Positions 22,692 to 54,289 of a DNA stretch of 64,000 nucleotides are shown here, one piece after another (within the stretch, counting starts at the first letter, position 1; each line of letters begins with the position of its first letter). A program made the position numbers and the translations under genes. Origin of the DNA: Dehalococcoidia bacterium (lineage in GTDB: Bacteria > Chloroflexota > Dehalococcoidia > DSTF01 > JACRBR01); NCBI GenBank assembly GCA_035632115.1, contig DASQHL010000133.1, forward strand, positions 792 through 64,791, read 5' to 3'. Below the pieces are notes generated by a model. The model did not search any database. It was not told the DNA's origin and saw nothing but the letters and a program-made list of their open reading frames with translations.

Positions 22692-24806
22692 ATGAGCGGC
22701 GTCGACCACCCGGACGGCCCGCGCACGTTCGCGACGTGGCTGCGCGATAGCGCGCCGGTACCCCCGGACGTCATCGAACGCCTCATCGGGCTGGACCTGG
22801 GCCGCCACCCGACGCTCAGCGAGCTGCGCGCCGCCCTGGGGCTGGACTTCGACGCCGAGGCGGCGGCCGCCGCCGCCCGCGACGCCTGGCCCGGCCGCGA
22901 CGTGCTCCCCTCCGATGACGACCTCTGTGCCGTCCTGGACGCGATGTACCGCGCCGTCCGCTCGACCCGCATGGTGCGCGCCCGCTGCACCGTCGCCGGG
23001 CCGGAGCTCTCGCGCGAGGGCGGCGCCATCACCCTGCGCGACGGCGATCACCTGGTGCTGCTCGCCTTTGCCGACAACGAGACCGATGGCAGCGTGGCGT
23101 TCTCCTCCGAAGCCCACGGCGAGGGCGTCGGCGGCCACGTGGAGCAGCGCCGCTCGGGCTCGGCGCTGCTGGACGCAGGTGAGATGCACGCCGGTTCGTA
23201 CCTTCTCCCCGTGCTCGTTGTGGCCGACGGCCGCCCCGCCACGATCGACCTGCCGATCGAGTGCCGCCCGTCCGGCATGCTGGCGGTGCGGATCCTGGAC
23301 GCCGCTGGCGGCGAGCCCGTGGCGGCGCGCGTCTACCTGCTCGATGCCGTCGGCGCGGCGTGGCCCGACGGCGCGACCGTGCGCATCGACCAGCACGGCA
23401 ACGCCTACTTTCACGCCGAGGGTTCATTCGAGGCGCGTGTCAGCGGCGAGGTGCGGGTCCGCGTCGCCCGCGGCGTGGAGTACGAGCCGTGGGAGGAGAC
23501 GCTCACCGTGCCCACCGACGGCCGCGCCGAGCGCACGGCGCGCCTCGCGCGCTGGTCGGACATGGCGGCCGACGGCTGGCACAGCGGCGACGTCCACGTG
23601 CACATGCACTACGGCGGCGAGTACCAGCTCGAGCCGGAGGACGTCGCGCTGGTGCAGCGCGCGGAGGACGTGCGCTTCCTGAACATGATGGTGGCCAACC
23701 AGGACAGCGGCTGGGTGCACGACACGACGCGCTTCAGCGGGACCGACCACGCGTTGAGCACCGCAACCCACGTGCTGCGCTGGGGCGAAGAGTATCGCAA
23801 CGACTTCTACGGCCACCTCTGCATGTTCGGCATCCGCGCCCTCGTGCCGCCGATCTACAGCGGCTTCCGCGCCAGTGCCCACCCGCACGACGTGCCGGCG
23901 AACGCCGTCGCGGCGCGCGCCGCCCGCGACGCCGCGGGCACCCTGAGCTACGCCCACCCCATGATGGCCGACGGCGCGCTCGACCGCGTGTTCGAGAGGA
24001 AGCGCGCGTATGAGGCCAAGGAGCTCCCCGTCGACGCAGCGCTCGGCCTCATCGACGCGGTCGACGTGATGTCCTACCCCGCGAGCCATATCGATACGGC
24101 ACGGCTCTGGTATCGCCTGCTCAACTGCGGGCTGCGCCTCGCGGCGACCGCCGGCAGCGACACCTTCATGAACTGCTGCGAGCACGGCGAGTTCAGCAAC
24201 CCGCCCGGCGGCGTGCGCGCGTTCGTCCGCATCGATGGCGCGTTCTCAAGCGAGGCCTGGTGCGCGGGCGTGCGCGCCGGCCGCACCTTCGTCACCAACG
24301 CGCCGATGCTCTCGCTCGAGGCGACCCACGCTGGCGCGATGTACGGGGTCGGCGACGAGATCGCCGCGCGACCGGGCGACGTGATCCGCATCGAAGCGGC
24401 GGCGGGCGCCCACGTGAATATGGAGCGTCTCGAACTGCTGGTGGACGGCGAGATGGTCGAGGCGGTCGTGTCGGACGGCGGGATGGATCGCGCGGCGTTG
24501 ACCTACGAACTGACCGCGCGCGAGAGCTGCTGGTTCGCGCTGCGGGCGCAGGGTCCGGCCGACCCGCGAGTGATGGACGACGCCGTCTTCGCGCACACCA
24601 GCCCCGTGTACGTGAACGTGGACGGGGCGCCGCGACGCCACGCGGCGGACGCGGCGTACTTCGCCGAGTGGATCGAGCGCCTGATCGCGATGACCGAACG
24701 CGAGGGCCGGTTCCCGGACGATGCGTCGCGCGACGCCGTCATCGCCGAGTTCCGCGCGGCACAGGCGTACTATCGCGGCTCGGATGGCGCGGCGGGCGAG
24801 CGCTGA
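22692..24806 (+). CDS. CehA/McbA-family (PHP-like) metal-dependent hydrolase with an additional N-terminal domain
   Basis: 704-aa ORF. Central region …[16 protein letters not shown]…, …SYAHP…, …[18 protein letters not shown]… matches CehA/McbA metallohydrolase motifs. Confidence 0.6.
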
Positions 24807-28910: not shown

Positions 28911-29921
28911 CTAGGGGTGTACCCCTACCCAGGCGACGACAGCGTCCTCGATCGTGCGTTGGGCCGCGGCGGCGTCGTCCAGCGTCTTGTGGCTGACGAG
29001 CGCCAGCCCGCCGCCGCCGTCGCTTGGCGCCACGGGGGCGCGCTCCGTGCTCGCGTCGACGTTCGTCACGTTCGGCCGGCCGATGCCCGAGCCGTGCCAC
29101 CCCTCGTTGAGCTGGTACACGTTGAGGATCGGCGTCCGCAGTGGCATCTCGGTGGCATTGCGGTCGTACAGCGCGGTTGTGCGGTCGATGATGACGCCGT
29201 ACATCCGCGCCCCGAAGCGCATGTCGAGCGCGGCCGTGACCGACGTGACCGTCACCGCCCCGTGGCTGTGGCCCAGCAGCACGGCGCGCAGGCACGGCAT
29301 CGCCTCCAGGCGGAGCGCCACCTCGTGCCCAAGCCACTGCTCCATGCGTGTCTGCGGCAGATCCGCGCCGAACAGCGCCGATGTGGCCAGCACCGTGTCC
29401 GTCGCCACGCCCGCCGCCCCCAGCCGCTGCTGCAGCGTGCGCACGATGTCCAGCAACCCCATGCTCTCGCCCCCCGACGGATCCAGCAGGTTGCTGCCGG
29501 CGCTCGCCGCGGAGACGATCAACACGGGCGGCACACGCGCGGCGCAACTGTACCCCGCGGCGTCAGACGGCGGGCCGGCGTAGAAGTCGCTGCGATGCGC
29601 CGGATCGATGCAAGCCTCGCCGGCGACCAGCGGGATGTCGAGCCCGGCCAGCGCGCTGCCGTCACCCGCATTCAGCCGGCCGTCATGGTCGCGGTCAAGG
29701 CAAGAGATCTGGATCGGCACGCCGCCGCGGGACGTCGCCAGCCCCTCGATCCACGTCGCCGGCAGTGGCGTCGCCGTCGGTTGCGCGGGCGACGGAGTGT
29801 GCGTCGGGAGGGGGATCGTGGCGGACTGGCTGCTGCCGGCGCCGTTCGCGAACACGAGGTACAGCACTGCCGCTGCCACCGTGGCCACGGCAAGCAGCAC
29901 CAGCGCGGACGCGAATCTCAT
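28911..29921 (-). CDS. Secreted alpha/beta-hydrolase (lipase/esterase-like) protein
   Basis: N-terminal signal/TM MRFASALVLLAVATVAAAVLYLV. Thr/Pro-rich spacer. GxSxG nucleophile elbow in LLGHSHGAVTV. Confidence 0.6.
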   Translation of the reverse strand: MRFASALVLLAVATVAAAVLYLVFANGAGSSQSATIPLPTHTPSPAQPTATPLPATWIEGLATSRGGVPIQISCLDRDHDGRLNAGDGSALAGLDIPLVAGEACIDPAHRSDFYAGPPSDAAGYSCAARVPPVLIVSAASAGSNLLDPSGGESMGLLDIVRTLQQRLGAAGVATDTVLATSALFGADLPQTRMEQWLGHEVALRLEAMPCLRAVLLGHSHGAVTVTSVTAALDMRFGARMYGVIIDRTTALYDRNATEMPLRTPILNVYQLNEGWHGSGIGRPNVTNVDASTERAPVAPSDGGGGLALVSHKTLDDAAAAQRTIEDAVVAWVGVHP

Positions 29922-30310
29922 CCCGTGGCGCGGCGTGCGCCCCCGAGGAGGCTGCGCGGGACGGCGTTCCGGCGGCCGCGCTCGATGTCGCGCAGCCAGG
30001 CGCGGACGCGGCGCCCGGCGACGATCGCGGCGCCGGTCAGGTCGAACGTGGCGGCGTCATCGCCGGCGCGTACGCGGATCCGGCTGCCGCCCGCCCGCTC
30101 CACCGCGGCGACGTCGGCGAGCCAGAACGCAGCCCGCGTGGCCTCGTTGCCCTCCACATCCGCGACGAAGAACAGGCGCTCGCTGGTCAGCGTCAGCCAG
30201 CCCTCCCACCAGTGCGGCGGGCCGGCAACGCGGAGCCGGGCCGCGCCCGACCGGGCGAGTTGCTCGCGAGCATGCAAGGCGTCCCGCTCGTGTCGGCTGG
30301 ACGGTGCCAT
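29918..30310 (-). CDS. Bacterial PH/GRAM-like domain protein (hypothetical)
   Basis: 130-aa ORF whose stop overlaps the start of the downstream hydrolase gene by 4 nt (ATGA). Core WWEGWLTLTSERLFFV resembles bPH/GRAM domains. Confidence 0.45.
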   Translation of the reverse strand: MAPSSRHERDALHAREQLARSGAARLRVAGPPHWWEGWLTLTSERLFFVADVEGNEATRAAFWLADVAAVERAGGSRIRVRAGDDAATFDLTGAAIVAGRRVRAWLRDIERGRRNAVPRSLLGGARRATG

Positions 30311-31690: not shown

Positions 31691-31780
31691 GGCGGCATGG
31701 TAGGCGACGCGCTCGCGCACGCCCAGCGCGGCCCCGCCGCGTCCGGTTGCGTCTGCTCCGGACGGCCGTATGCTGGGCTT

Positions 31781-32281
31781 ATGCGCATCGGCGTCGTCTC
31801 CGACACGCACGGCTACGTCGACCCGCGGCTGGCGGCGGCCTTCGCTGGCGTCGAGGCGATCCTCCACGCTGGCGACGTCGGCGGCATGGACGTGTTGGCT
31901 GCATTGCAGGCAATGGCGCCCCTGTACGCTGTCCGCGGCAACAACGACGAAAAGCTCGGCGGGCTGGGCCTGCCGCTGCGACGGGACGTCGCCCTCGACG
32001 GCATCCCGTTTCATATCGTCCATCGCTTCCCGGACGCGCGCCCGCCAGCGCACGCCGGCGTCGTCGTCTTCGGACACAGCCACCGCGCGCTGATCGAGCG
32101 TGGCCCTGGCGCCATGCGCGTCAATCCCGGCGCCGCCGGCCGCGTGGGCTTCCACCGCATCCAGACCGTGGCGCTGATCAGCACCGCCGCCGGCGCCGTC
32201 GCCGAAGCGCGCGTTGTCGAGCTGGGCGCGCGCCTGCCGCCTCCGCCCCGCCGCTCCGCATCGAAGGGCGGTGCGCGATGA
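31781..32281 (+). CDS. YfcE/MJ0936-type metallophosphoesterase (MPP superfamily phosphodiesterase)
   Basis: MRIGVVSDTHGY…ILHAGDVG…VRGNND…GHSH motifs. ATG at 31781 in the frame of ORF 31169..32281. Confidence 0.75.
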   Translation: MRIGVVSDTHGYVDPRLAAAFAGVEAILHAGDVGGMDVLAALQAMAPLYAVRGNNDEKLGGLGLPLRRDVALDGIPFHIVHRFPDARPPAHAGVVVFGHSHRALIERGPGAMRVNPGAAGRVGFHRIQTVALISTAAGAVAEARVVELGARLPPPPRRSASKGGAR

Positions 32282-33741
32282 CCGATGCGCTGCTCGATGA
32301 GCTGGACCGGGAGGCTGAGGCGTTCGCCGAGGCGGTCGAGCGCGAACAGTACCTGAACGGATCCGGCCAGAAAGACCGCGTGGAGCTGCAGGCGATCTAC
32401 CGCCGTCACGCGCGACTGTTCTCGCGCGAGACGATCGATGCGCTGGCTCGCGCCGACGCCGCCGACGAGCGCCGGCGCGAGCTGCGTCGCCTGGCCGTCG
32501 AGGGTTACCTGGACGCCGCCGCGGACGAGCTCACCGAGGCGATCGCGCTGCGCGAGACGGCCGATGCGGTCGAATGGGACGGCGCCGCCGTGCCCTACCG
32601 GTCCGTTGCGCCGCTGGTGCGCAACGAGCCCGATGCCGCGCGCCGTCATGCGCTGGAACGCCGCCTCGCCGCGGTGACGGCGGCCCAGAACGCGCTCCGC
32701 GAGCGCCGCTGGGACGTCCTCCACGGGCGCGCGAACGAGCTGGGCTACGGAAGCTACCGGCAGCTCATCGAGGACGTGGGCGGGTTGGACATCGCTGCGC
32801 TCGCTGCGACGCTCGGCCGCTTCCTGCGCGACACGGAGGCGCCGTATCGCGACGCGCTGGCGACGCGCCTCCGCGCTATAGGCATCGACCCCGCGTTTGC
32901 CGAAAAGAGCGACCTGGCGTTTCTCTTCCGCGAGCCGGCGTTCGATCGCTGGTTCGCGGCGGACCGGCTGCTGGAGACCTACGCGGAGACGATGCGCGGA
33001 CTGGGGCTGGCGGACCAGGCGCAGGCGCGCATCATCCTCGATGTGGAGCCGCGGCCCACGAAGTCGCCCCGCGCGTTCTGCTCGGCGCTCCGCATTCCCG
33101 ACGAGATCTACCTTGTGATCAGCCCGCAGGGCGGCGAGAGCGACTACGGCGCCATCCTGCACGAGGGCGGCCACGCCCAGCACTTCGCGCACGTCGGTCG
33201 CTCGCTGCCCTTCGCCCTCCGCGGCCTCGGCGATAACTCCGTGACGGAGGGCTTCGCCTTCGTGCTCGAACACATCATGGCGATCCCCGCCTGGCTCGAG
33301 CGTCATCTCGGCATGCAGGATCCCGGCGCCTACCTGGCGGCGCACCGCTTCAACCGGCTCTACATGGTGCGCCGGTACGCCGCCAAGCTGCTGTACGAAG
33401 CGGAGCTGCACGCTCGCGACGAGGTGCGCGGCGGCCAGAAGCGCTACGCCGATCTCCTGACGGCGGCGACCGGCGTGCGCTACCAGCCGGAGGACTACCT
33501 CGCCGATGTGGACGACGCGTACTACTGCGCGCGCTATCTCCGCGCCTGGATCTTCGATGCGCAGGTGCGCGCGCTGCTGCGCCAGCGCTTTGGCGATGGC
33601 TGGTTCGCGTCGCCGGCCGCGGGTGCGAAACTCGTCGAGCTCTGGTCGCGCGGCCAGCGCTACGACGCGCCCGAGCTGCTGCGGCGCGAAGGGCTCGCCG
33701 GCCTCGACCCGGCCGCGCTCGTGTCGGACCTCGCCGGCTGA
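32278..33741 (+). CDS. HExxH zinc metallopeptidase (M3/oligoendopeptidase-like family)
   Basis: ATG overlaps the upstream stop (ATGA). Zincin motif ILHEGGHAQHF with a downstream E (…TEGFAFVLEH…). 487 aa. Confidence 0.6.
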   Translation: MTDALLDELDREAEAFAEAVEREQYLNGSGQKDRVELQAIYRRHARLFSRETIDALARADAADERRRELRRLAVEGYLDAAADELTEAIALRETADAVEWDGAAVPYRSVAPLVRNEPDAARRHALERRLAAVTAAQNALRERRWDVLHGRANELGYGSYRQLIEDVGGLDIAALAATLGRFLRDTEAPYRDALATRLRAIGIDPAFAEKSDLAFLFREPAFDRWFAADRLLETYAETMRGLGLADQAQARIILDVEPRPTKSPRAFCSALRIPDEIYLVISPQGGESDYGAILHEGGHAQHFAHVGRSLPFALRGLGDNSVTEGFAFVLEHIMAIPAWLERHLGMQDPGAYLAAHRFNRLYMVRRYAAKLLYEAELHARDEVRGGQKRYADLLTAATGVRYQPEDYLADVDDAYYCARYLRAWIFDAQVRALLRQRFGDGWFASPAAGAKLVELWSRGQRYDAPELLRREGLAGLDPAALVSDLAG

Positions 33742-44864: not shown

Positions 44865-47800
44865 ACGACCTCTTCGGCCTCTCGATGACCTACGTCATGA
44901 TCGCCCTGCTGGTGATCCTCGGTATCGCCGCGTCCAGCATCGCCTGGGTCGTGCTCCGCAACCGCGTCATGTTCCTCATCGGCGTCCGCAACATCCCGAG
45001 GCGGCGCGCGCAGACCGTCCTCATCATCATCGGACTGATGCTCAGCACGCTGATCATCAGCACCGCCTTCAGCATTGGCGATACCGTGAGCTACAGCCTC
45101 ACCAGCCAGGTGTACGAACGGCTGCACAGCGTCGACGAGGTGGTGCACACCGCCACCGACCAGAGCGGCACGGGCGGCGATACCTCGCTCGTCACCACCA
45201 AGCCCATCCCTGGCGACCAGGCCCGCTCCTACGTGGCGCGCTTCAAGGCGGTCCCCGGCGTCGATGGCGCGCTTAGCATCATCCGCACAACGGTGCCCAT
45301 CGCGAACCCCCGCACCCGCCTCCACGATCCGAAAGCCGGCCTCGTCGGCGCCGCGCCCGGCCAGATGCAGGGCTTCGAAACCGACATCCAGACCCTCGAT
45401 GGCCGGCAAGCATCGTTGGACGCGCTCGGCCCCAACGAGATCTACGCGAACAAGGCGCTCGCCGACAAGCTGGACGTCGTCAAGGGCGACACCCTCCAGA
45501 TCTTCGTCTCCGGCCAGTCCCACACCTTCAAGGTGCGCGACATCGTCCAGGACCGCGTGCTCGCCGGCGCGCTGCTCGACCAGTCGAGCGGCGTGGTGCT
45601 CGGCCTGCCGGCCGCCCAAACACTCCTCGGCCGCCCCGACAACGTTGACCTCATCGTCGTCTCCAACAACGGCGGCGTCCACGCCGGCATCAACAACTCC
45701 GGGCAGGTCAAGGATGCGCTGAACGCCATCCTCGCCGGCTCCAGCTGGAGCGCCGATGCCACCCTGAAGGACCTCGTCAAGCAGGCCAACACCGCCGCCA
45801 GCTTCCTCACCACCTTCTTCGTCGTGCTCGGCCTCTTCTCCATCGCCGCCGGCGCGCTGCTCATCTTCCTCATCTTCGTCATGCTGGCGGCCGAGCGGAA
45901 GGTGGAGATGGGGATGATCCGCGCCGTCGGCACCAAGCGCAGCCACCTCGTGCAGATGTTCATGTCGGAGGGCATGGCGTACAACACCGCGGCCGCCGCC
46001 GTCGGCTGCGCCCTCGGGGTCGTCGTCTCGATCGGCATGGTCCGGATCATGGCGTCGCTGTTCGCCGGCGGCGGCCTGGGGATCACGTTCCACGTCACCG
46101 CGCGCAGCCTGATCGTGTCGTACTCGCTCGGCGTCGTCCTCACGTTCCTCACCGTCACGTTCTCGTCGTGGCGCATCGGCAACCTCAACATCGTCAGCGC
46201 CATCCGCGATACCGCGGATCCGACCGCGCAGGTCGCGCGCCCCCGCGGCGGCCGCGGCATCCTCACCCTGCTCACCTACGCGAAGTGGATCATCGTCAAA
46301 CCCGAACGCCTGCGCGACTGGATCGTCGGCTTTGCCTTCTTCCTCCTCGCCGCGCTGCTCATCGCCCTGACCGCCGGCTCCTTCATCGGCGCCGTGGCCA
46401 TCTACGGCTCGACCGCCGCCGCCAGCGTCGCCGCCGTGCTGCTCGGCGTGCTCGGCGTCTGCGCGGCCATCGCGTCCGTCGTCGCCGTCGGCATCGCCCT
46501 CACCCGCATCTTCCAGACCGGCGCCATCGCGTTGATCGTCGGTGGCCTGCTGGTGGCCGTCGGCCTGATCTCCTGGCAGGCCGCGGCGTACACCGGCGGC
46601 ACCTCGCTCGTCTTCATCGGCGCCGCGCTGACGCTCGTCATGCTGCGCGTGCCCGCGCGCCCCGTGTTCACCACCATGGGCCTCTCCCTGCTCGTCTACT
46701 GGCTGCTCAGCGCCGGCCGCCAGCTCCCGCCCCACATGAACGGCGGCATCGAGATGTTCTTCCTCAGCGGCATCACCATGGTCCTGTCCTCGACGTTCGT
46801 CCTCATCTACAACGCCGACGTAATGCTCGCTGTGCTCACCCGCGTGGGCAGCCTGAACGCCGGCCTGGTGCCGGCCATCCGCACCGCCGTCGCCTACCCG
46901 CTGGCGAACAAGTTCCGCACCGGCATGACCATCGCCATGATCTCGCTCGTCATGTTCGCGCTTGTGATGATCTCCACCATGAACAGCAACTTCAGCCGCA
47001 TCTTCCTCAGCAACGACGCGCTCGGCGGGTACGACGTCGTCGTCCAGGAGAACCCGAACAACCCCATCCCCGACCTCACCACCGCCATCCAGCGCGCGGG
47101 CGGCGATGCCGCGGGCGTCGCTTCCGTGGATGTCGTGCACGTCGCCAATCCCATCGTCTCCGAAGTGCGCATGGCGCCGGCCGCGGCGAGCGCCGGCTCG
47201 ACGAGCACGCCCGCCACCCCCGCCGCCGGCGCCGCAACGGGCACCTTCAGCCGCTACATGGTCCTCGGGCCGAGCGACGCCTTCATCAACGGCAACGGCA
47301 TCAAGTTCCACGCTCGCGCCGACGGGCTCACGACCGACGCCCAGGTCTGGCACGAACTCCTCACCAACCCCAACGCCGCCGTGATCGATGCCTTCGCCAT
47401 CGGCGGCGGCGGCTTCGGCGGCGGCGGCGGCTTCACGCTCACCGGCATCAAGCCCGCCGACACCACCTTCAAGCCGATCAAGGTCCAGGTGCGCGACGCC
47501 GCCAACCCCGCCAACATCCGCGATCTCGAGATCGTCGGCATCTTCAGCACGAAGGCCAGCGCCGTCTACCACGGCCTGTACGTCGCGCCCCCGGCGTTTG
47601 CCGCCGTGTTCCCAAAGCCTGACTTCGGTCTGCACTTCGTCAAGGTCGCGCCCGGCGTCGACTCAACGCGCGAGGCCAAGTACATCGAGGCGACATTGAG
47701 CAGCCAGGGCGTGCAGAGCGACTCCCTCCGCAAGCTGATCAACGACCAGCGCGCTCAGAACCAGGCCTTCCTCTACCTCATCCAGGGATTCATGGGCATC

Positions 47801-48184: not shown

Positions 48185-48394
48185 GTGAAGACGGAAATCT
48201 GGGAGTCGGATCCGTTCACGCCCCAGAAGGGGCGCCTGCTCGCCTCCATCGAGAGCGAGTACCGCTTCGAGAAGGGCGACGAGCTCTTCTTCGACGACGC
48301 GCCCGGTCGCCTCAAGGTGCGCATCATCAACGTGCGCCTGCACGTGAGGCGCGGCGGCGACCTGTACCGCGAGATTCTGGCCCTGAAGCTGTGA
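48185..48394 (+). CDS. Small hypothetical protein (69 aa)
   Basis: GTG start 13 nt after the permease stop. High GC3. No known domain. Confidence 0.4.
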   Translation: MKTEIWESDPFTPQKGRLLASIESEYRFEKGDELFFDDAPGRLKVRIINVRLHVRRGGDLYREILALKL

Positions 48395-48435: not shown

Positions 48436-48464
48436 TTGACCGTTGATCGGGTCGGTGCTACATT
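48436..48464 (+). promoter_or_regulatory. Sigma70-type promoter for rex: -35 TTGACC (48436-48441), 17-nt spacer, -10 TACATT (48459-48464)
   Basis: Near-consensus hexamers at optimal spacing in an otherwise GC-rich intergenic region, about 60 nt upstream of the rex ATG. Confidence 0.5.
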
Positions 48465-48481
48465 GCGCAAAATTGCGCAAT
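48462..48481 (+). promoter_or_regulatory. Candidate Rex operator: tandem palindromic half-sites aTTGCGCAAaaTTGCGCAAt overlapping the -10/+1 region
   Basis: Two copies of the self-complementary octamer TTGCGCAA, 2 nt apart. Resembles the Rex box TTGTGAA-N-TTCACAA. Positioned for autorepression. Confidence 0.45.
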
Positions 48482-48524
48482 CTGGCGGATCTTCCTCGCT
48501 CGCGAGCCCCCGCGCAGGAGCCGG

Positions 48525-49217: not shown

Positions 49218-49946
49218 ATGCTGCCTTCGCGCCGGACTGAATTCCTCGCCGGCGTGCGCGCCCAGCTCCCGCTGCTGCTGGGCGTCGCCCCCTTCGGCAT
49301 GGCCTACGGCGCCTACGCCGTGAAGGCCGGACTCCCGTCCGGCCTGTCGCAGGCCATGTCGGCGATCGTCTTCGCCGGCGCCAGCCAGTTCGTCGGTGTC
49401 CGCCTGATCGTGCGCGACGTCCCCGCCGCCGTCATCGTGCTGACCGTCCTGCTGGTCAACTTGCGCCACGTCCTGTACAGCGCCTCCCTGGCGCCCTACG
49501 TCGAACACCTGGACCGCCGTTGGCGCTGGCTCCTCGCCTACCTGCTGACCGATGAGGCGTACGCCACGGCGATCGTCCGCTACCGCGGCGCTGCCCCCTC
49601 GCCGTACAAGCACTGGTTCTTCCTCGGCACGGCGATCACCCTGTGGGCGGCCTGGCAGGTCAGCACCGGCGCCGGCGTCTTCGTCGGCACCGCCGTGCCC
49701 AACTCGTGGTCGCTGGACTTCGCGCTGCCGCTCACCTTCATCGCCCTGCTGGTGCCCATGGCGTCGGAGCGGCCCGCGCTGGCCGCCGCCGCCGTGGCGG
49801 GACTGGTCGCCGTCGTGGGGTTCCGCTGGCCGTACGGCATCGGGCTGATCGTCGCCGCCGGCGCGGGCATGGCGGCGGGGATCGCGCTTGACCGCGCGCT
49901 CTCCCCATCTGCTCCGGCCGCCGCCGATGTCGAGGCCGGCCCGTGA
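49218..49946 (+). CDS. azlC: AzlC-family branched-chain amino acid exporter subunit
   Basis: AzlC signature …SAIVFAGASQFV…; 6 TM helices. Confidence 0.85.
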   Translation: MLPSRRTEFLAGVRAQLPLLLGVAPFGMAYGAYAVKAGLPSGLSQAMSAIVFAGASQFVGVRLIVRDVPAAVIVLTVLLVNLRHVLYSASLAPYVEHLDRRWRWLLAYLLTDEAYATAIVRYRGAAPSPYKHWFFLGTAITLWAAWQVSTGAGVFVGTAVPNSWSLDFALPLTFIALLVPMASERPALAAAAVAGLVAVVGFRWPYGIGLIVAAGAGMAAGIALDRALSPSAPAAADVEAGP

Positions 49947-50263
49947 GGCTCTGGCTGATCGTGCTCGCGATGGGCGCCGGCACCTACGGCATCCGGCTCT
50001 CCGTGCTCGCGCTGGTGCATCATTCGGCCCTGCCGCGCACCGCCCGCGAGGCCCTGCGCTTCGTGACACCCGCCGTGCTCTGCGCCATCGTCCTGCCCGC
50101 GGTCCTCTACACCGGCCCGGCTGCCGCGTTCGATGCCGGGCCGGGCAACCAGCGCCTGCTCTCCGCCATCGTCGCCGCGCTGGTCGCCTGGAGCGCGAAG
50201 AACGTCTGGCTCACGATCGGCGCCGGCATGGGCGTGCTCTGGCTCCTCCAGTGGGCCTCCTGA
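49943..50263 (+). CDS. azlD: AzlD-family branched-chain amino acid exporter small subunit
   Basis: GTG start overlaps the azlC stop (GTGA). 106-aa, 3-4 TM helix AzlD-like protein. Confidence 0.8.
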   Translation: MRLWLIVLAMGAGTYGIRLSVLALVHHSALPRTAREALRFVTPAVLCAIVLPAVLYTGPAAAFDAGPGNQRLLSAIVAALVAWSAKNVWLTIGAGMGVLWLLQWAS

Positions 50264-51615: not shown

Positions 51616-52386
51616 TCACGCGCTCTCGACGCTGCCGCGCCCGGCGCGCGGCCGCCGCGTCCGCAGCACCTTCACCCCCCGGTCGTCGTAGAGCAGCGGC
51701 ACCGTCGCTGAGACATCGATCTGCGCCGCGTAGCGTAGGTCCTCGACGAAGCCGCCTTCCTCCAGCGTCCTGCCGTGCTTCGACTGGCGGAAGATCCGCC
51801 CCGCGTCGCCGCGGTACCATCGCCAGAGGTGCAGCGCCGCCCACGCCTCGTCCGTGAGCGCCAGCGCCGGATCGGCGTCCCGCGCCGCCTCGACGATGGC
51901 GCCGGCTGCGGCCGTGTCCTCCAGGCTGAACGCCGTGCCGCGCTCCGTCCCCGCGCACACCACCGCGATGTCCAGCCGCCGCCGCCCCGCCTCGTCCACC
52001 ATCCGCCCGGCCACCGCGCGCCGGTTCGTCAGCGCCGCCGCCGCCACGACCGGCGCGTCCGCCGCCGCCGCGAGCGCCCGTGTGCCGTTCGTCGTGCACA
52101 GCACCGCCGACTTGCCTCGAAACGATAAGTGAGAGAACTCGGCCGGCGAATTGCCGTAGTCGAACCCCGGTGGTGGCGCCGCGCGAACCTCCCCGCAGAG
52201 CAGCGCGAAGTTGGCCAGCGCCAGCTTCCGTGCCTGCTGCAGGTTCTCGCTCACCATCGCCCGCAGCAGCCCGCCCTCGAACATCGCCACCAGCGACGTC
52301 GTCGCGCGCAGCACGTCGACGACGGCGACGGCGTGGCGGCGCGGCTCACGCAGCAGCCCCGGCGTCAGCGCCACCGTGATCCTCAT
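51616..52386 (-). CDS. 2-phosphosulfolactate phosphatase (ComB) family protein
   Basis: ATG at 52386 (MRITVALTPGLL…). ComB-family similarity across 256 aa. Confidence 0.75.
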   Translation of the reverse strand: MRITVALTPGLLREPRRHAVAVVDVLRATTSLVAMFEGGLLRAMVSENLQQARKLALANFALLCGEVRAAPPPGFDYGNSPAEFSHLSFRGKSAVLCTTNGTRALAAAADAPVVAAAALTNRRAVAGRMVDEAGRRRLDIAVVCAGTERGTAFSLEDTAAAGAIVEAARDADPALALTDEAWAALHLWRWYRGDAGRIFRQSKHGRTLEEGGFVEDLRYAAQIDVSATVPLLYDDRGVKVLRTRRPRAGRGSVESA

Positions 52387-52519
52387 GATGCGAGCGTACG
52401 CCGCCCTGCCCCGCAGGTCGAGGGCGCGCGTCAACTTGACGGCCCGCCCACGCCCGCCGCCGCGCTTTCGCCGCCGGAGGCGCCGCTGGCCGTGCCTGCC
52501 CATCCCCTATCATGCAGCC

Positions 52520-54289
52520 ATGGCCCGCATTGAGGCCTCGATCGAGGACTTCGGCACGCGCGTCGCCTCCCTCCCGCGGGGCTTCTGGCGGCGCGGCCGC
52601 GCCGATACGTCGCTGGAGACGCTGCCCGGCGGCATCCGCCTCGCCGTCCTCACCTCACCTTTCATCGTGCGCTGGGCCGCCTGGCTGGTCGCCGTCCTCA
52701 TCGTCGTCATCGCCAACGAACCGCGCGTCAACGTGCGCTTCGAGCCGTGGCTCCTGCTCGGCACGATGGTGCAGACGGCACTCGTCACCTTCTACGTGCC
52801 AGTCATCCGCCCGGCCCTCCTCCCCGTCCTCCGCCGCTGGTTCGAGACGCCGGAGAACAACGACGTGCTCGTCCTCGGCCTCGCCGACCTTACGCTCTCG
52901 ATGACCGCCGTCTACCTCAGTGGCGGCTGGGGCAGCCCGTACTACCACTTCGCGCTGACCGCCCTGCTCATCCCCGCGTTCTTCTTCACCTTCCGCGGCG
53001 TGCTGCTGCTCGGCGGCGCCTTCATGGCAGCCTACGTCTTCGGACTGATGACCTTCGGCGATGGCGTCCACGGCGGCTGGAAGGACACCAACCTCAACAG
53101 CTTCATCGGCGCCATGGTGACGCCGCTCCTCGTCGCCCTCGTCCCGAACTACCTCGGCACCGTCCTGCGCGAGCTCGATGCCGCGCGCCAGGACGCCGTG
53201 GAGGCCCTCGGCGATAGCGACCTCCTCTATCGCGTCGCGCGCGCCTTCCTGGAGGGCGCCCGCCAGCCCGCCGCCGTGCTGCCTAACGTCGCCGCCTCCG
53301 CCGTCGAGGAGTCGCGCTTCTCCCGCGTCGCGCTGCTCGTCCCGCGCGATGGCGCCGTCCAGGCCTTCGGTACGGACCTCGACCCACCACCGGAGCTGGA
53401 GCGCCTGCGCACGGCGTTCGATGCCGAGGGCGCGCGCACCTGGCTTGCCGACGCGCTGCCGCCGCCGCTCGATGCCGCCTTGCGCGGCTGCGCCTGGTGC
53501 GGCGTCGTCCCCCTGCGCTCCTCCGATGGCATCGAAGGCTGGGTCGTCGCCGGCGCGCTCGAACGGCCCGCCTCCATCCTCCATCAGATCCGACTGCTCG
53601 ACGCCATGGCCGGGCAGATCGCGCTGGGCGTCCGCAACATCCGCCTCACCGCCCGCGTCGCCGAACTGGCTGCCGAGTACGAGCGGGGCCGCATCGCGCG
53701 CGAGATCCACGACGGCATCGCCCAGATGGTCTACATGCTCTCCCTCAGCCTGGAGACCGCCATCGATCGCGTCGGCAGCGACCCCGCCGAGCAGCGCCAG
53801 CGCCTGAAGGACCTGACGGCGCTCGCCAAACATGCGCTCTGGGAAGTGCGCCAGTACATCTTCGACCTCCGGCCTCTGCTCAGCGGCGACGAGGGCCTCG
53901 CCGGCGCCGTGCAGGGTCAGGTCCAGGAGTTCCAGGCTGTCTCCGATCTGCCGGTGGACTTCGTCGTCCGCGGCGAGCCTGGCCCCCTCCCCATGGAGAC
54001 CAGCGCCGCCCTCTACCGCATCGTGCAGGAGGGGCTGGGCAACATCTTCCGCCACGCCCAGGCCTCGCACGTCGCGATCGAGCTGGCCTTTCGCGACGCC
54101 TCCGTCGCGCTCGCCATCAGCGACGACGGCGTCGGCATCAGCGACGCCGAGCCCGGCGCGCGCGTAGGCTACGGCATGGCGAACCTGCGCGAGCGCGTCG
54201 AGGCACTGCGCGGCACCCTCGCCGTGCGCAGCGAACCCGGCGAGGGTACACGTATCGAGGTCGCAGTGCCGGTCGGAGGAGACACATGA
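52520..54289 (+). CDS. Membrane sensor histidine kinase, NarL/LuxR-partner type (HisKA_3 + HATPase_c)
   Basis: ATG at 52520. N-terminal multi-TM sensor region. H-box …EYERGRIAREIHDGIAQ…. N and G boxes …IVQEGLGNIFRHA… and …DDGVGI…. Confidence 0.85.
   Translation: MARIEASIEDFGTRVASLPRGFWRRGRADTSLETLPGGIRLAVLTSPFIVRWAAWLVAVLIVVIANEPRVNVRFEPWLLLGTMVQTALVTFYVPVIRPALLPVLRRWFETPENNDVLVLGLADLTLSMTAVYLSGGWGSPYYHFALTALLIPAFFFTFRGVLLLGGAFMAAYVFGLMTFGDGVHGGWKDTNLNSFIGAMVTPLLVALVPNYLGTVLRELDAARQDAVEALGDSDLLYRVARAFLEGARQPAAVLPNVAASAVEESRFSRVALLVPRDGAVQAFGTDLDPPPELERLRTAFDAEGARTWLADALPPPLDAALRGCAWCGVVPLRSSDGIEGWVVAGALERPASILHQIRLLDAMAGQIALGVRNIRLTARVAELAAEYERGRIAREIHDGIAQMVYMLSLSLETAIDRVGSDPAEQRQRLKDLTALAKHALWEVRQYIFDLRPLLSGDEGLAGAVQGQVQEFQAVSDLPVDFVVRGEPGPLPMETSAALYRIVQEGLGNIFRHAQASHVAIELAFRDASVALAISDDGVGISDAEPGARVGYGMANLRERVEALRGTLAVRSEPGEGTRIEVAVPVGGDT

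Follow-up and report, generated by a model that had tools for sequence, protein, structure and literature searches.

The window, the entire 64-kb stretch of DNA analysed here with a G+C content of 70.7%, encodes the redox-sensing repressor Rex, whose open reading frame matches PF06971 (Put_DNA-bind_N) and PF02629 (CoA_binding) as well as the NCBIfam models NF003995 (262 bits, cut-off 126) and NF003993 (239 bits). The protein aligns end to end with Rex proteins of solved structure from Thermus (3IKT, 1XCB), Thermotoga (5ZZ5), B. subtilis (2VT2) and S. agalactiae (3KET) at E-values of 1e-45 to 1e-28. The recognition helix R48-K49-D-L-S-Y-F-G and the wing GKQGRGY can be aligned with T-Rex and T. 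maritima Rex, with R48/K49 being equivalent to Arg50/Arg51 and A45 to Ala47 of S. agalactiae Rex (PMC8376106). The identical protein is also encoded, among the same neighbours, on the 3.6-kb Logan contig L201 from run SRR6788488.

Downstream of rex, azlC and azlD (Table 1) are followed on the same strand by proA after a gap of roughly 60 bp, and neither a promoter nor an intergenic terminator was predicted between 49100 and 52300. The azlC-azlD-proA genes are thus possibly co-transcribed with rex and under Rex control, as far as gene order can tell; the rex-azlCD synteny is common only to the window, the relative L001 and the above-mentioned contig L201. Directly upstream of the rex promoter, between an FtsX-type permease, which in the window has 1102 aa, and rex, a 69-aa open reading frame without Pfam or NCBIfam match recurs always at this position in 13 relatives with 54-81% identity (tblastn) and is a real, uncharacterised small protein. 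Beyond these genes, a HisKA_3 histidine kinase is encoded at 52211-54289 (+) of the window. Such a kinase recurs in varying orientation within 1-3 kb of rex across close relatives, and together with a NarL-type response regulator it is located downstream of rex in L004, L006, L008, L009, L012 and L015, which may indicate a functional association with rex or only a conserved neighbourhood. Four further open reading frames of the window (704, 336, 130 and 664 aa) show coding-like codon bias, but no Pfam match at E <= 0.001.

Table 1. Coordinates of features in the window and, where prefixed by a locus name, at rex loci of relatives
Feature	Position	Strand	Remark
Conserved 69-aa ORF	48185..48394	+	directly upstream of rex promoter, outside operator
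-35 hexamer TTGACC of rex promoter	48436..48441	+	sequence reading, promoter scan
Extended -10 TGcTACATT	48456..48464	+	TG 48456-57, hexamer TACATT 48459-64
Candidate Rex operator (ROP), dyad TTGCGCA-AAAT-TGCGCAA	48463..48480	.	18 bp, 45 bp upstream of rex
Predicted transcription start	48470..48472	+	A residues 6-8 nt past -10 hexamer, at operator centre
Shine-Dalgarno AGGAG	48516..48520	+	4 nt before ATG; GGAG conserved in alignment A1
rex, redox-sensing repressor, 214 aa	48525..49169	+	winged-helix and NAD(H)-binding Rossmann domains
azlC	49218-49946	+	Pfam AzlC; 48 bp after rex
azlD	49943-50263	+	Pfam AzlD; -4 bp gap to azlC
Pfam-unmatched ORFs	22692-24806	+	
Pfam-unmatched ORFs	28911-30310	-	
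Pfam-unmatched ORFs	31747-33741	+	
In-frame TGA (FTR-like gene)	L006:3964-3966, L008:4041-4043, L010:3960-3962		
In-frame TGA (FTR-like gene)	L013:3985-3987, L002:3959-3961, L016:3989-3991		
Cys codon at TGA-equivalent position	L007:3989-3991, L014:3974-3976, L011:3970-3972		
Cys codon at TGA-equivalent position	L009:3973-3975, L012:4013-4015		

A scan with the consensus promoter retrieved a single sigma-70-like site between 47900 and 49400 (9/12 matches plus the TG extension, 0.1 expected), in which TTGACC and TACATT are separated by a spacer of 17 bp and which lies 61 bp upstream of rex. TTGACC-17-TACATT is the rex promoter, as had been proposed in the first-pass annotation; its designation there as near-consensus is appropriate for the -35 hexamer (5/6) and the TG extension, but not for the -10 hexamer itself (4/6). 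In alignment A1, which comprises 18 orthologous upstream regions, TTGACC is conserved at >=90% with unconserved sequence farther upstream, and the extended -10 element GGTGCTACA is invariant or nearly so. Conserved islands in these 18 regions are the -35 element, the extended -10 element, positions 1-3, 5, 9 and 15-18 of the box described below and the Shine-Dalgarno sequence, whereas the promoter spacer, the 5'UTR and the far-upstream sequence have diverged freely. From standard sigma-70 promoter geometry, transcription is predicted to start at around 48471; the leader between 48471 and 48530 folds no better than shuffled sequence (z = 0.2).

The octamer TTGCGCAA is present at 48463-48470 and 48473-48480 with AA between the copies, the only two in the 64-kb window (0.6 expected), and the TT at 48463-64 of the first copy are at the same time the final two bases of the -10 hexamer. 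Taken as one unit, the 18 bp form a dyad palindromic at 16/18 positions with the central A·A alone unpaired, spaced 7-4-7 like TTGTGAA-N4-TTCACAA, the canonical operator of Rex. Outer TTG...CAA, G3/G5 and C14/C16 of the canonical operator are present, but its inner bases T4/A15 and A6/T13 are replaced by C4/G15 and C6/G13. The dyad is statistically exceptional, as TTGCGCANNNNTGCGCAA with <=1 mismatch has one match in the window at 0.02 expected, and such an A/T-centred 18-mer is conspicuous because of the high G+C content of its surroundings. The canonical box TTGTGAANNNNTTCACAA itself, searched in the window with <=3 mismatches, gave one intragenic match at chance level at 46962. The dyad covers the -10 edge and the predicted start of the region's one sigma-70-like promoter, which is kept in 17 relatives.

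The conservation of the box was assessed in a scan at one genome per species, which provided 80 rex loci, all from Chloroflexota/'Dehalococcoidia' MAGs and with a Rex identity of 61-91% to the window protein. At 54 of the 80 loci, the 200 bp preceding rex contain a box scoring >=14 bits; the other 26 are without a box of this score, many having a degenerate left half. The 17 closest relatives (L001-L016, L041) possess the same promoter followed by the box, with the -35 element kept except in L014. Their box reads TTG[C/T]G[C/A]-N6-G[C/T]GCAA and is located between -46 and -85 relative to the start codon; that of L006 (OY969567.1) is identical to the window's. An extra T between -10 and box in L009, L011 and L013 and a -10 hexamer TACGCT in L012 shift the overlap of -10 and box by 1-2 nt in these four species, so that -10 and box are two separate elements. 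Distant relatives have TTGTGC..GCACAA, TTGTGACCAAATTCGCAA, TTGTGAAGTAGTTCTCAA or GTTACGGATTTCACAA at the equivalent position, which are canonical-type Rex boxes. The 7-4-7 dyad of the window resembles the canonical Rex box while differing from it, in agreement with the initial description of the motif, and the boxes upstream of rex in relatives grade continuously into canonical TTGTG..CACAA boxes.

Besides this arrangement, a subgroup of loci (L022, L031, L033-L035, L039, L024, L029, L036, L057, L058) has a Rex-like box (TTGTAATTGTGAGCACAA or TTGTATTTTTCTGCACAA) some 110 to 133 nt before rex, where it precedes or coincides with the -35 region of a TGCTATAAG-type promoter instead of lying at the start point, with a left half-site without G5. 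The position of the operator relative to the promoter is thus not fixed across the family. L048 and L052 (CBDCMQ010000001.1 and CBDCMQ010000006.1), from one MAG, have identical rex genes and upstream regions including the box TTGTGCCGTATTTCTCAA, which is due to either recent duplication or assembly redundancy.

Applied to the window, a position weight matrix (PWM) derived from the boxes gives 28.8 bits at 48463 and no further match of >=12 bits. At >=11 bits, 61 matches are located in the 16 kb made up by 200 bp upstream of rex versus 12 weak ones in the other 459 kb of flanking sequence, in which no strong site was detected. When the 80 loci (475 kb) are taken together, matches of >=16 bits, also those at 13 loci outside the training set, all lie at -31 to -157 from rex. 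Likewise, the degenerate family pattern with <=1 mismatch matched the window once, at the rex box (2.1 expected), and the usual Rex target genes were not found in the 64 kb. Altogether no second box was encountered in about 580 kb of clade DNA, so that the motif is as yet supported at rex alone, a point against the operator reading, and the initial idea of predicting a redox regulon with it found no support within this sequence.

A gene for a ferredoxin:thioredoxin-reductase-like (FTR-like) protein, ftrB, follows rex in 11 of the 17 closest relatives, and none is present within the 64 kb of the window. As an independent member of the regulon ftrB was considered and rejected, since five unlinked FTR-like genes, one of which (L202) belongs to the same MAG as the rex locus L004, are without an upstream box of >=10 bits; the box thus goes with rex and not with ftrB. 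In six of the rex-linked FTR-like genes, the last Cys of the CPC...CAC...CHC pattern is an in-frame TGA, beyond which the frame is open and conserved, and a Cys codon occupies the equivalent position in five others (Table 1). About 20 nt downstream, in the TGA forms only, a hairpin CGGAA-GGUC-UUCCG looks like a bacterial SECIS element. This constellation points to a putative selenocysteine/cysteine pair. Selenocysteine-containing FTR homologues have been reported from ocean metagenomes (PMC2398784), and such a gene in the rex operon of soil Chloroflexota appears to have been previously unnoted.

The promoter region had initially been annotated with a tandem palindromic operator, which would mean two independent 8-bp palindromes TTGCGCAA, 10 bp apart and on the same face of the helix, that could bind two dimers of Rex or of an unrelated regulator. 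The octamers in the window are indeed identical and exactly 10 bp apart, although both arise automatically, because the half-site ends with CA and the spacer begins with A, with the mirror image of both on the other side. In a tandem arrangement, internal CAA and TTG would have to be under the same constraint as the triplets at the ends. Over 32 distinct orthologous boxes, the outer TTG/CAA are conserved at 29-32/32 (91-100%), with T2, G3, C14, C16, A17 and A18 at 31-32/32, but the internal positions at only 28-66% (C 15/32, A 9/32 and A 15/32 at positions 6-8 of the internal CAA; 17, 20 and 21 of 32 at positions 11-13 of the internal TTG), so that the unit is one 18-bp dyad. In line with this, T 24/C 8 at position 4 are mirrored by A 15/G 14 at position 15, C/A at position 6 by G/T at position 13, and the mean palindromic match of the 32 boxes amounts to 0.61 versus a direct-repeat match of 0.47; the first "octamer" is often non-palindromic in relatives (TTGCGCCA, TTGCGAAA, TTGTGCCG). 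The sole box looking more like a direct repeat than a dyad, with a slightly better fit, is TTGCGCCGAATTGTGCAA of L010, whose second unit TTGTGCAA carries the T/C polymorphism seen in the first unit of other species. Arrays of this kind also exist elsewhere: on L110 (304-333), L154 (about 192-240) and L111 (4413-4450), metagenome contigs with 60-64% GC that are unrelated to this lineage and have no rex gene nearby, 3-4 head-to-tail 10-bp TTGCGCAAWT units occupy intergenic regions and may be operator arrays of another regulator. Against two dimers also speaks the size of a Rex dimer, which takes up about 18 bp and has its recognition helices spaced by one turn of the DNA (PMC8376106); a stretch of 18 bp has no room for a second. 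The tandem reading is hence hardly tenable, and the octamers are a by-product of a single inverted repeat with an A/T spacer.

Accepting a single dyad, it might still be bound by another dimeric regulator that controls rex, such as a protein of the CRP/FNR family. The Rex and the CRP-type consensus (TGTGA-N6-TCACA, with the same geometry) are nearly superimposable. Moreover, TTGCGCA-W4-TGCGCAA is common in unrelated organisms, and exact TTGCGCAWWWWTGCGCAA was found at >=120 metagenome loci, nearly all of the matches listed being from unrelated low- or mid-GC organisms and no Rex being encoded among them; the bare motif is therefore not specific to Rex and can be used by other proteins. On the other hand, the box tracks rex across 54 species despite neighbours that change between azlCD, ftrB and a two-component system, ftrB apart from rex carries no box, the neighbours of rex in the window include no gene of the CRP/FNR family, and autoregulation is what has as a rule been documented for Rex (PMC5355995; PMC6391272), which together make a different regulator unlikely. 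That the block is no operator at all, but is kept as discriminator or initially transcribed region or through recent ancestry with incidental palindromy, is very improbable. The block does abut the -10 element directly, and the closest relatives, with Rex proteins 78-91% identical, could share it by descent; the kinship of these genomes counts against the operator in that part of the conservation is shared ancestry. This is not the whole story, as the spacer and the UTR are variable in the same alignments. Substitutions are mirror-symmetric, with 4/15 and 6/13 co-varying as in a dyad, and distant relatives whose -10 element (TATAGT, TATAAG) and spacing differ nevertheless have a TTG..CAA dyad close to rex.

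With a probability of roughly 0.8, as judged from sequence comparison, the dyad at 48463-48480 serves as operator for the Rex protein encoded 45 bp downstream and mediates simple negative autoregulation. The autoregulatory loop suggested at the outset is retained as the best reading because boxes conserved in position upstream of rex in the majority of related genomes grade into the canonical form. Binding of Rex, its response to NADH, the start site and how far the operon extends can be inferred as follows. A single dimer of Rex, in the open form that is either bound to NAD+ or free of cofactor, would insert one recognition helix into each of two consecutive major grooves and read G3 and G5 of both TTGCGCA half-sites. 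As the site would span the 3' edge of the -10 element and the predicted start, roughly from -8 to +10, bound Rex would block RNA polymerase binding or open-complex formation. With a rising NADH/NAD+ ratio, NADH would close the dimer, Rex would leave the operator and rex would be transcribed, probably together with azlC-azlD-proA. Precedents exist for these steps, as binding of NADH to the Rossmann domains releases other Rex proteins (PMC5355995; PMC2883068; PMC8376106), S. avermitilis rex is autorepressed via a footprinted ROP with a TTGTGCA half-site (PMC5355995) and Rex operators of S. aureus overlap promoters (PMC2883068).

Less straightforward is the half-site itself. C4/G15 is found in both half-sites of the window and 15 close relatives, in one half-site at 14 loci and in neither at 25 loci, and the boxes, by their sequences, form a stepwise series from canonical T4/A15 through hybrids to C4/G15. 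Mutagenesis in S. aureus found the ROP most sensitive to exchanges at positions 4 and 5 (PMC2883068), and the altered position 4 in both half-sites of the window therefore counts against the operator. The crystal structure of S. agalactiae Rex with DNA, however, has Arg50 and Arg51 hydrogen-bonded to the guanines at ROP positions 3 and 5, whereas position 4 is reached from Ala47 via water only (PMC8376106). With G3/G5 retained, the directly read bases are thus kept, and the changed base is the indirectly read one. The helix-wing segment is the same in the window Rex and 77 of the 80 relatives, although the wing was selected for by the pattern YFGRFGKQ used in the locus search, and the remaining three show 1-3 residue changes in the helix flanks or the wing with the RKDL core unchanged in all. 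A retuned specificity of Rex, in which position 4 would covary with the recognition helix, was rejected, since there is no covariation and the helix is essentially invariant. The C4/G15 count correlates with local GC (Spearman 0.51, uncorrected for phylogeny), so GC mutational bias may contribute to the T to C exchange as at best one factor; as its sole cause, GC drift was dismissed because equally GC-rich relatives keep A/T-rich boxes. The C4/C6 half-site is probably a local variant tolerated by the Rex of this group and no second kind of operator. A literature search retrieved no paper naming a TTGCGC Rex half-site, although an earlier Chloroflexi logo may lie outside its reach.

More tentatively, the Rex of the clade, with an unchanged helix, might read position 4/15 as pyrimidine/purine, with TTGCGC as preferred half-site throughout the lineage and a PWM that would uncover its redox regulon, a combination that is rather doubtful at present. 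If true, the redox regulon of the clade would in many species include a rex-ftrB operon with a selenocysteine-containing ferredoxin:thioredoxin-reductase-like ftrB product. The octamer pair as a search motif is too narrow and assumes the wrong architecture; a prediction of the regulon in these high-GC MAGs should instead start from the corrected motif TTG[C/T]G[C/A]-N6-[G/T]C[G/A]CAA. The natural passage of the box from T4/A15 to C4/G15 while the helix stays invariant constitutes a small, clean data point on the tolerance of Rex at an indirectly read position and leaves the known mechanism of Rex unchanged. The practical value is modest, the host group being uncultured, soil-abundant, high-GC Chloroflexota classed as Dehalococcoidia.

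Among the characterized systems, the rex-hemACD ROP of Streptomyces coelicolor and S. avermitilis resembles the dyad of the window as an inverted repeat of 18 bp that has TTG/CAA at its ends as well as G3/G5 and is located inside the core promoter of rex, here the predicted one, and the footprinted S. avermitilis ROP TTGTGCACGCGTTCACAA already shows C6 in one half-site (PMC5355995). Autorepression of Streptomyces rex-hemACD is relieved by NADH, and by analogy the same is proposed here. Distinct from the Streptomyces ROP are C4 (G15) and C6 (G13) in both half-sites, the A/T-rich spacer AAAT instead of a G/C-rich one, the location of the box at the -10 edge and predicted start point instead of the -35 region, and downstream azlCD-proA (ftrB in relatives) instead of heme genes.

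The boxes of Firmicutes, such as S. aureus TTGTGAAW4TTCACAA and the S. agalactiae ROP in 3KET, share the 7-4-7 geometry and the A/T spacer, and Firmicute Rex sites overlap promoters (PMC2883068; PMC8376106), as is predicted for the window. The conserved basic helix pair, which contacts G3/G5 in S. agalactiae, is RR there and RK here (PMC8376106). All characterised sites have T at position 4, and its mutation in S. aureus strongly weakens binding; in this lineage C occupies it in both halves with A45 unchanged. A drift of the inner half-site with TTG/CAA ends and spacing kept is also known from the variant TTGTTA-N6-TAACAA of Clostridia/Thermoanaerobacterales (PMC5886521), which alters position 5 (G to T), whereas the window variant alters positions 4 and 6. 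Comparative work on Rex regulons spans 11 taxa, among them the Chloroflexi with a RegPrecise collection of their own (PMC3840689). Self-repression of rex through a Rex operator in its own promoter is a well-known arrangement, most likely encountered here in an uncharacterised lineage with a TTGCGC(A) variant of the half-site.
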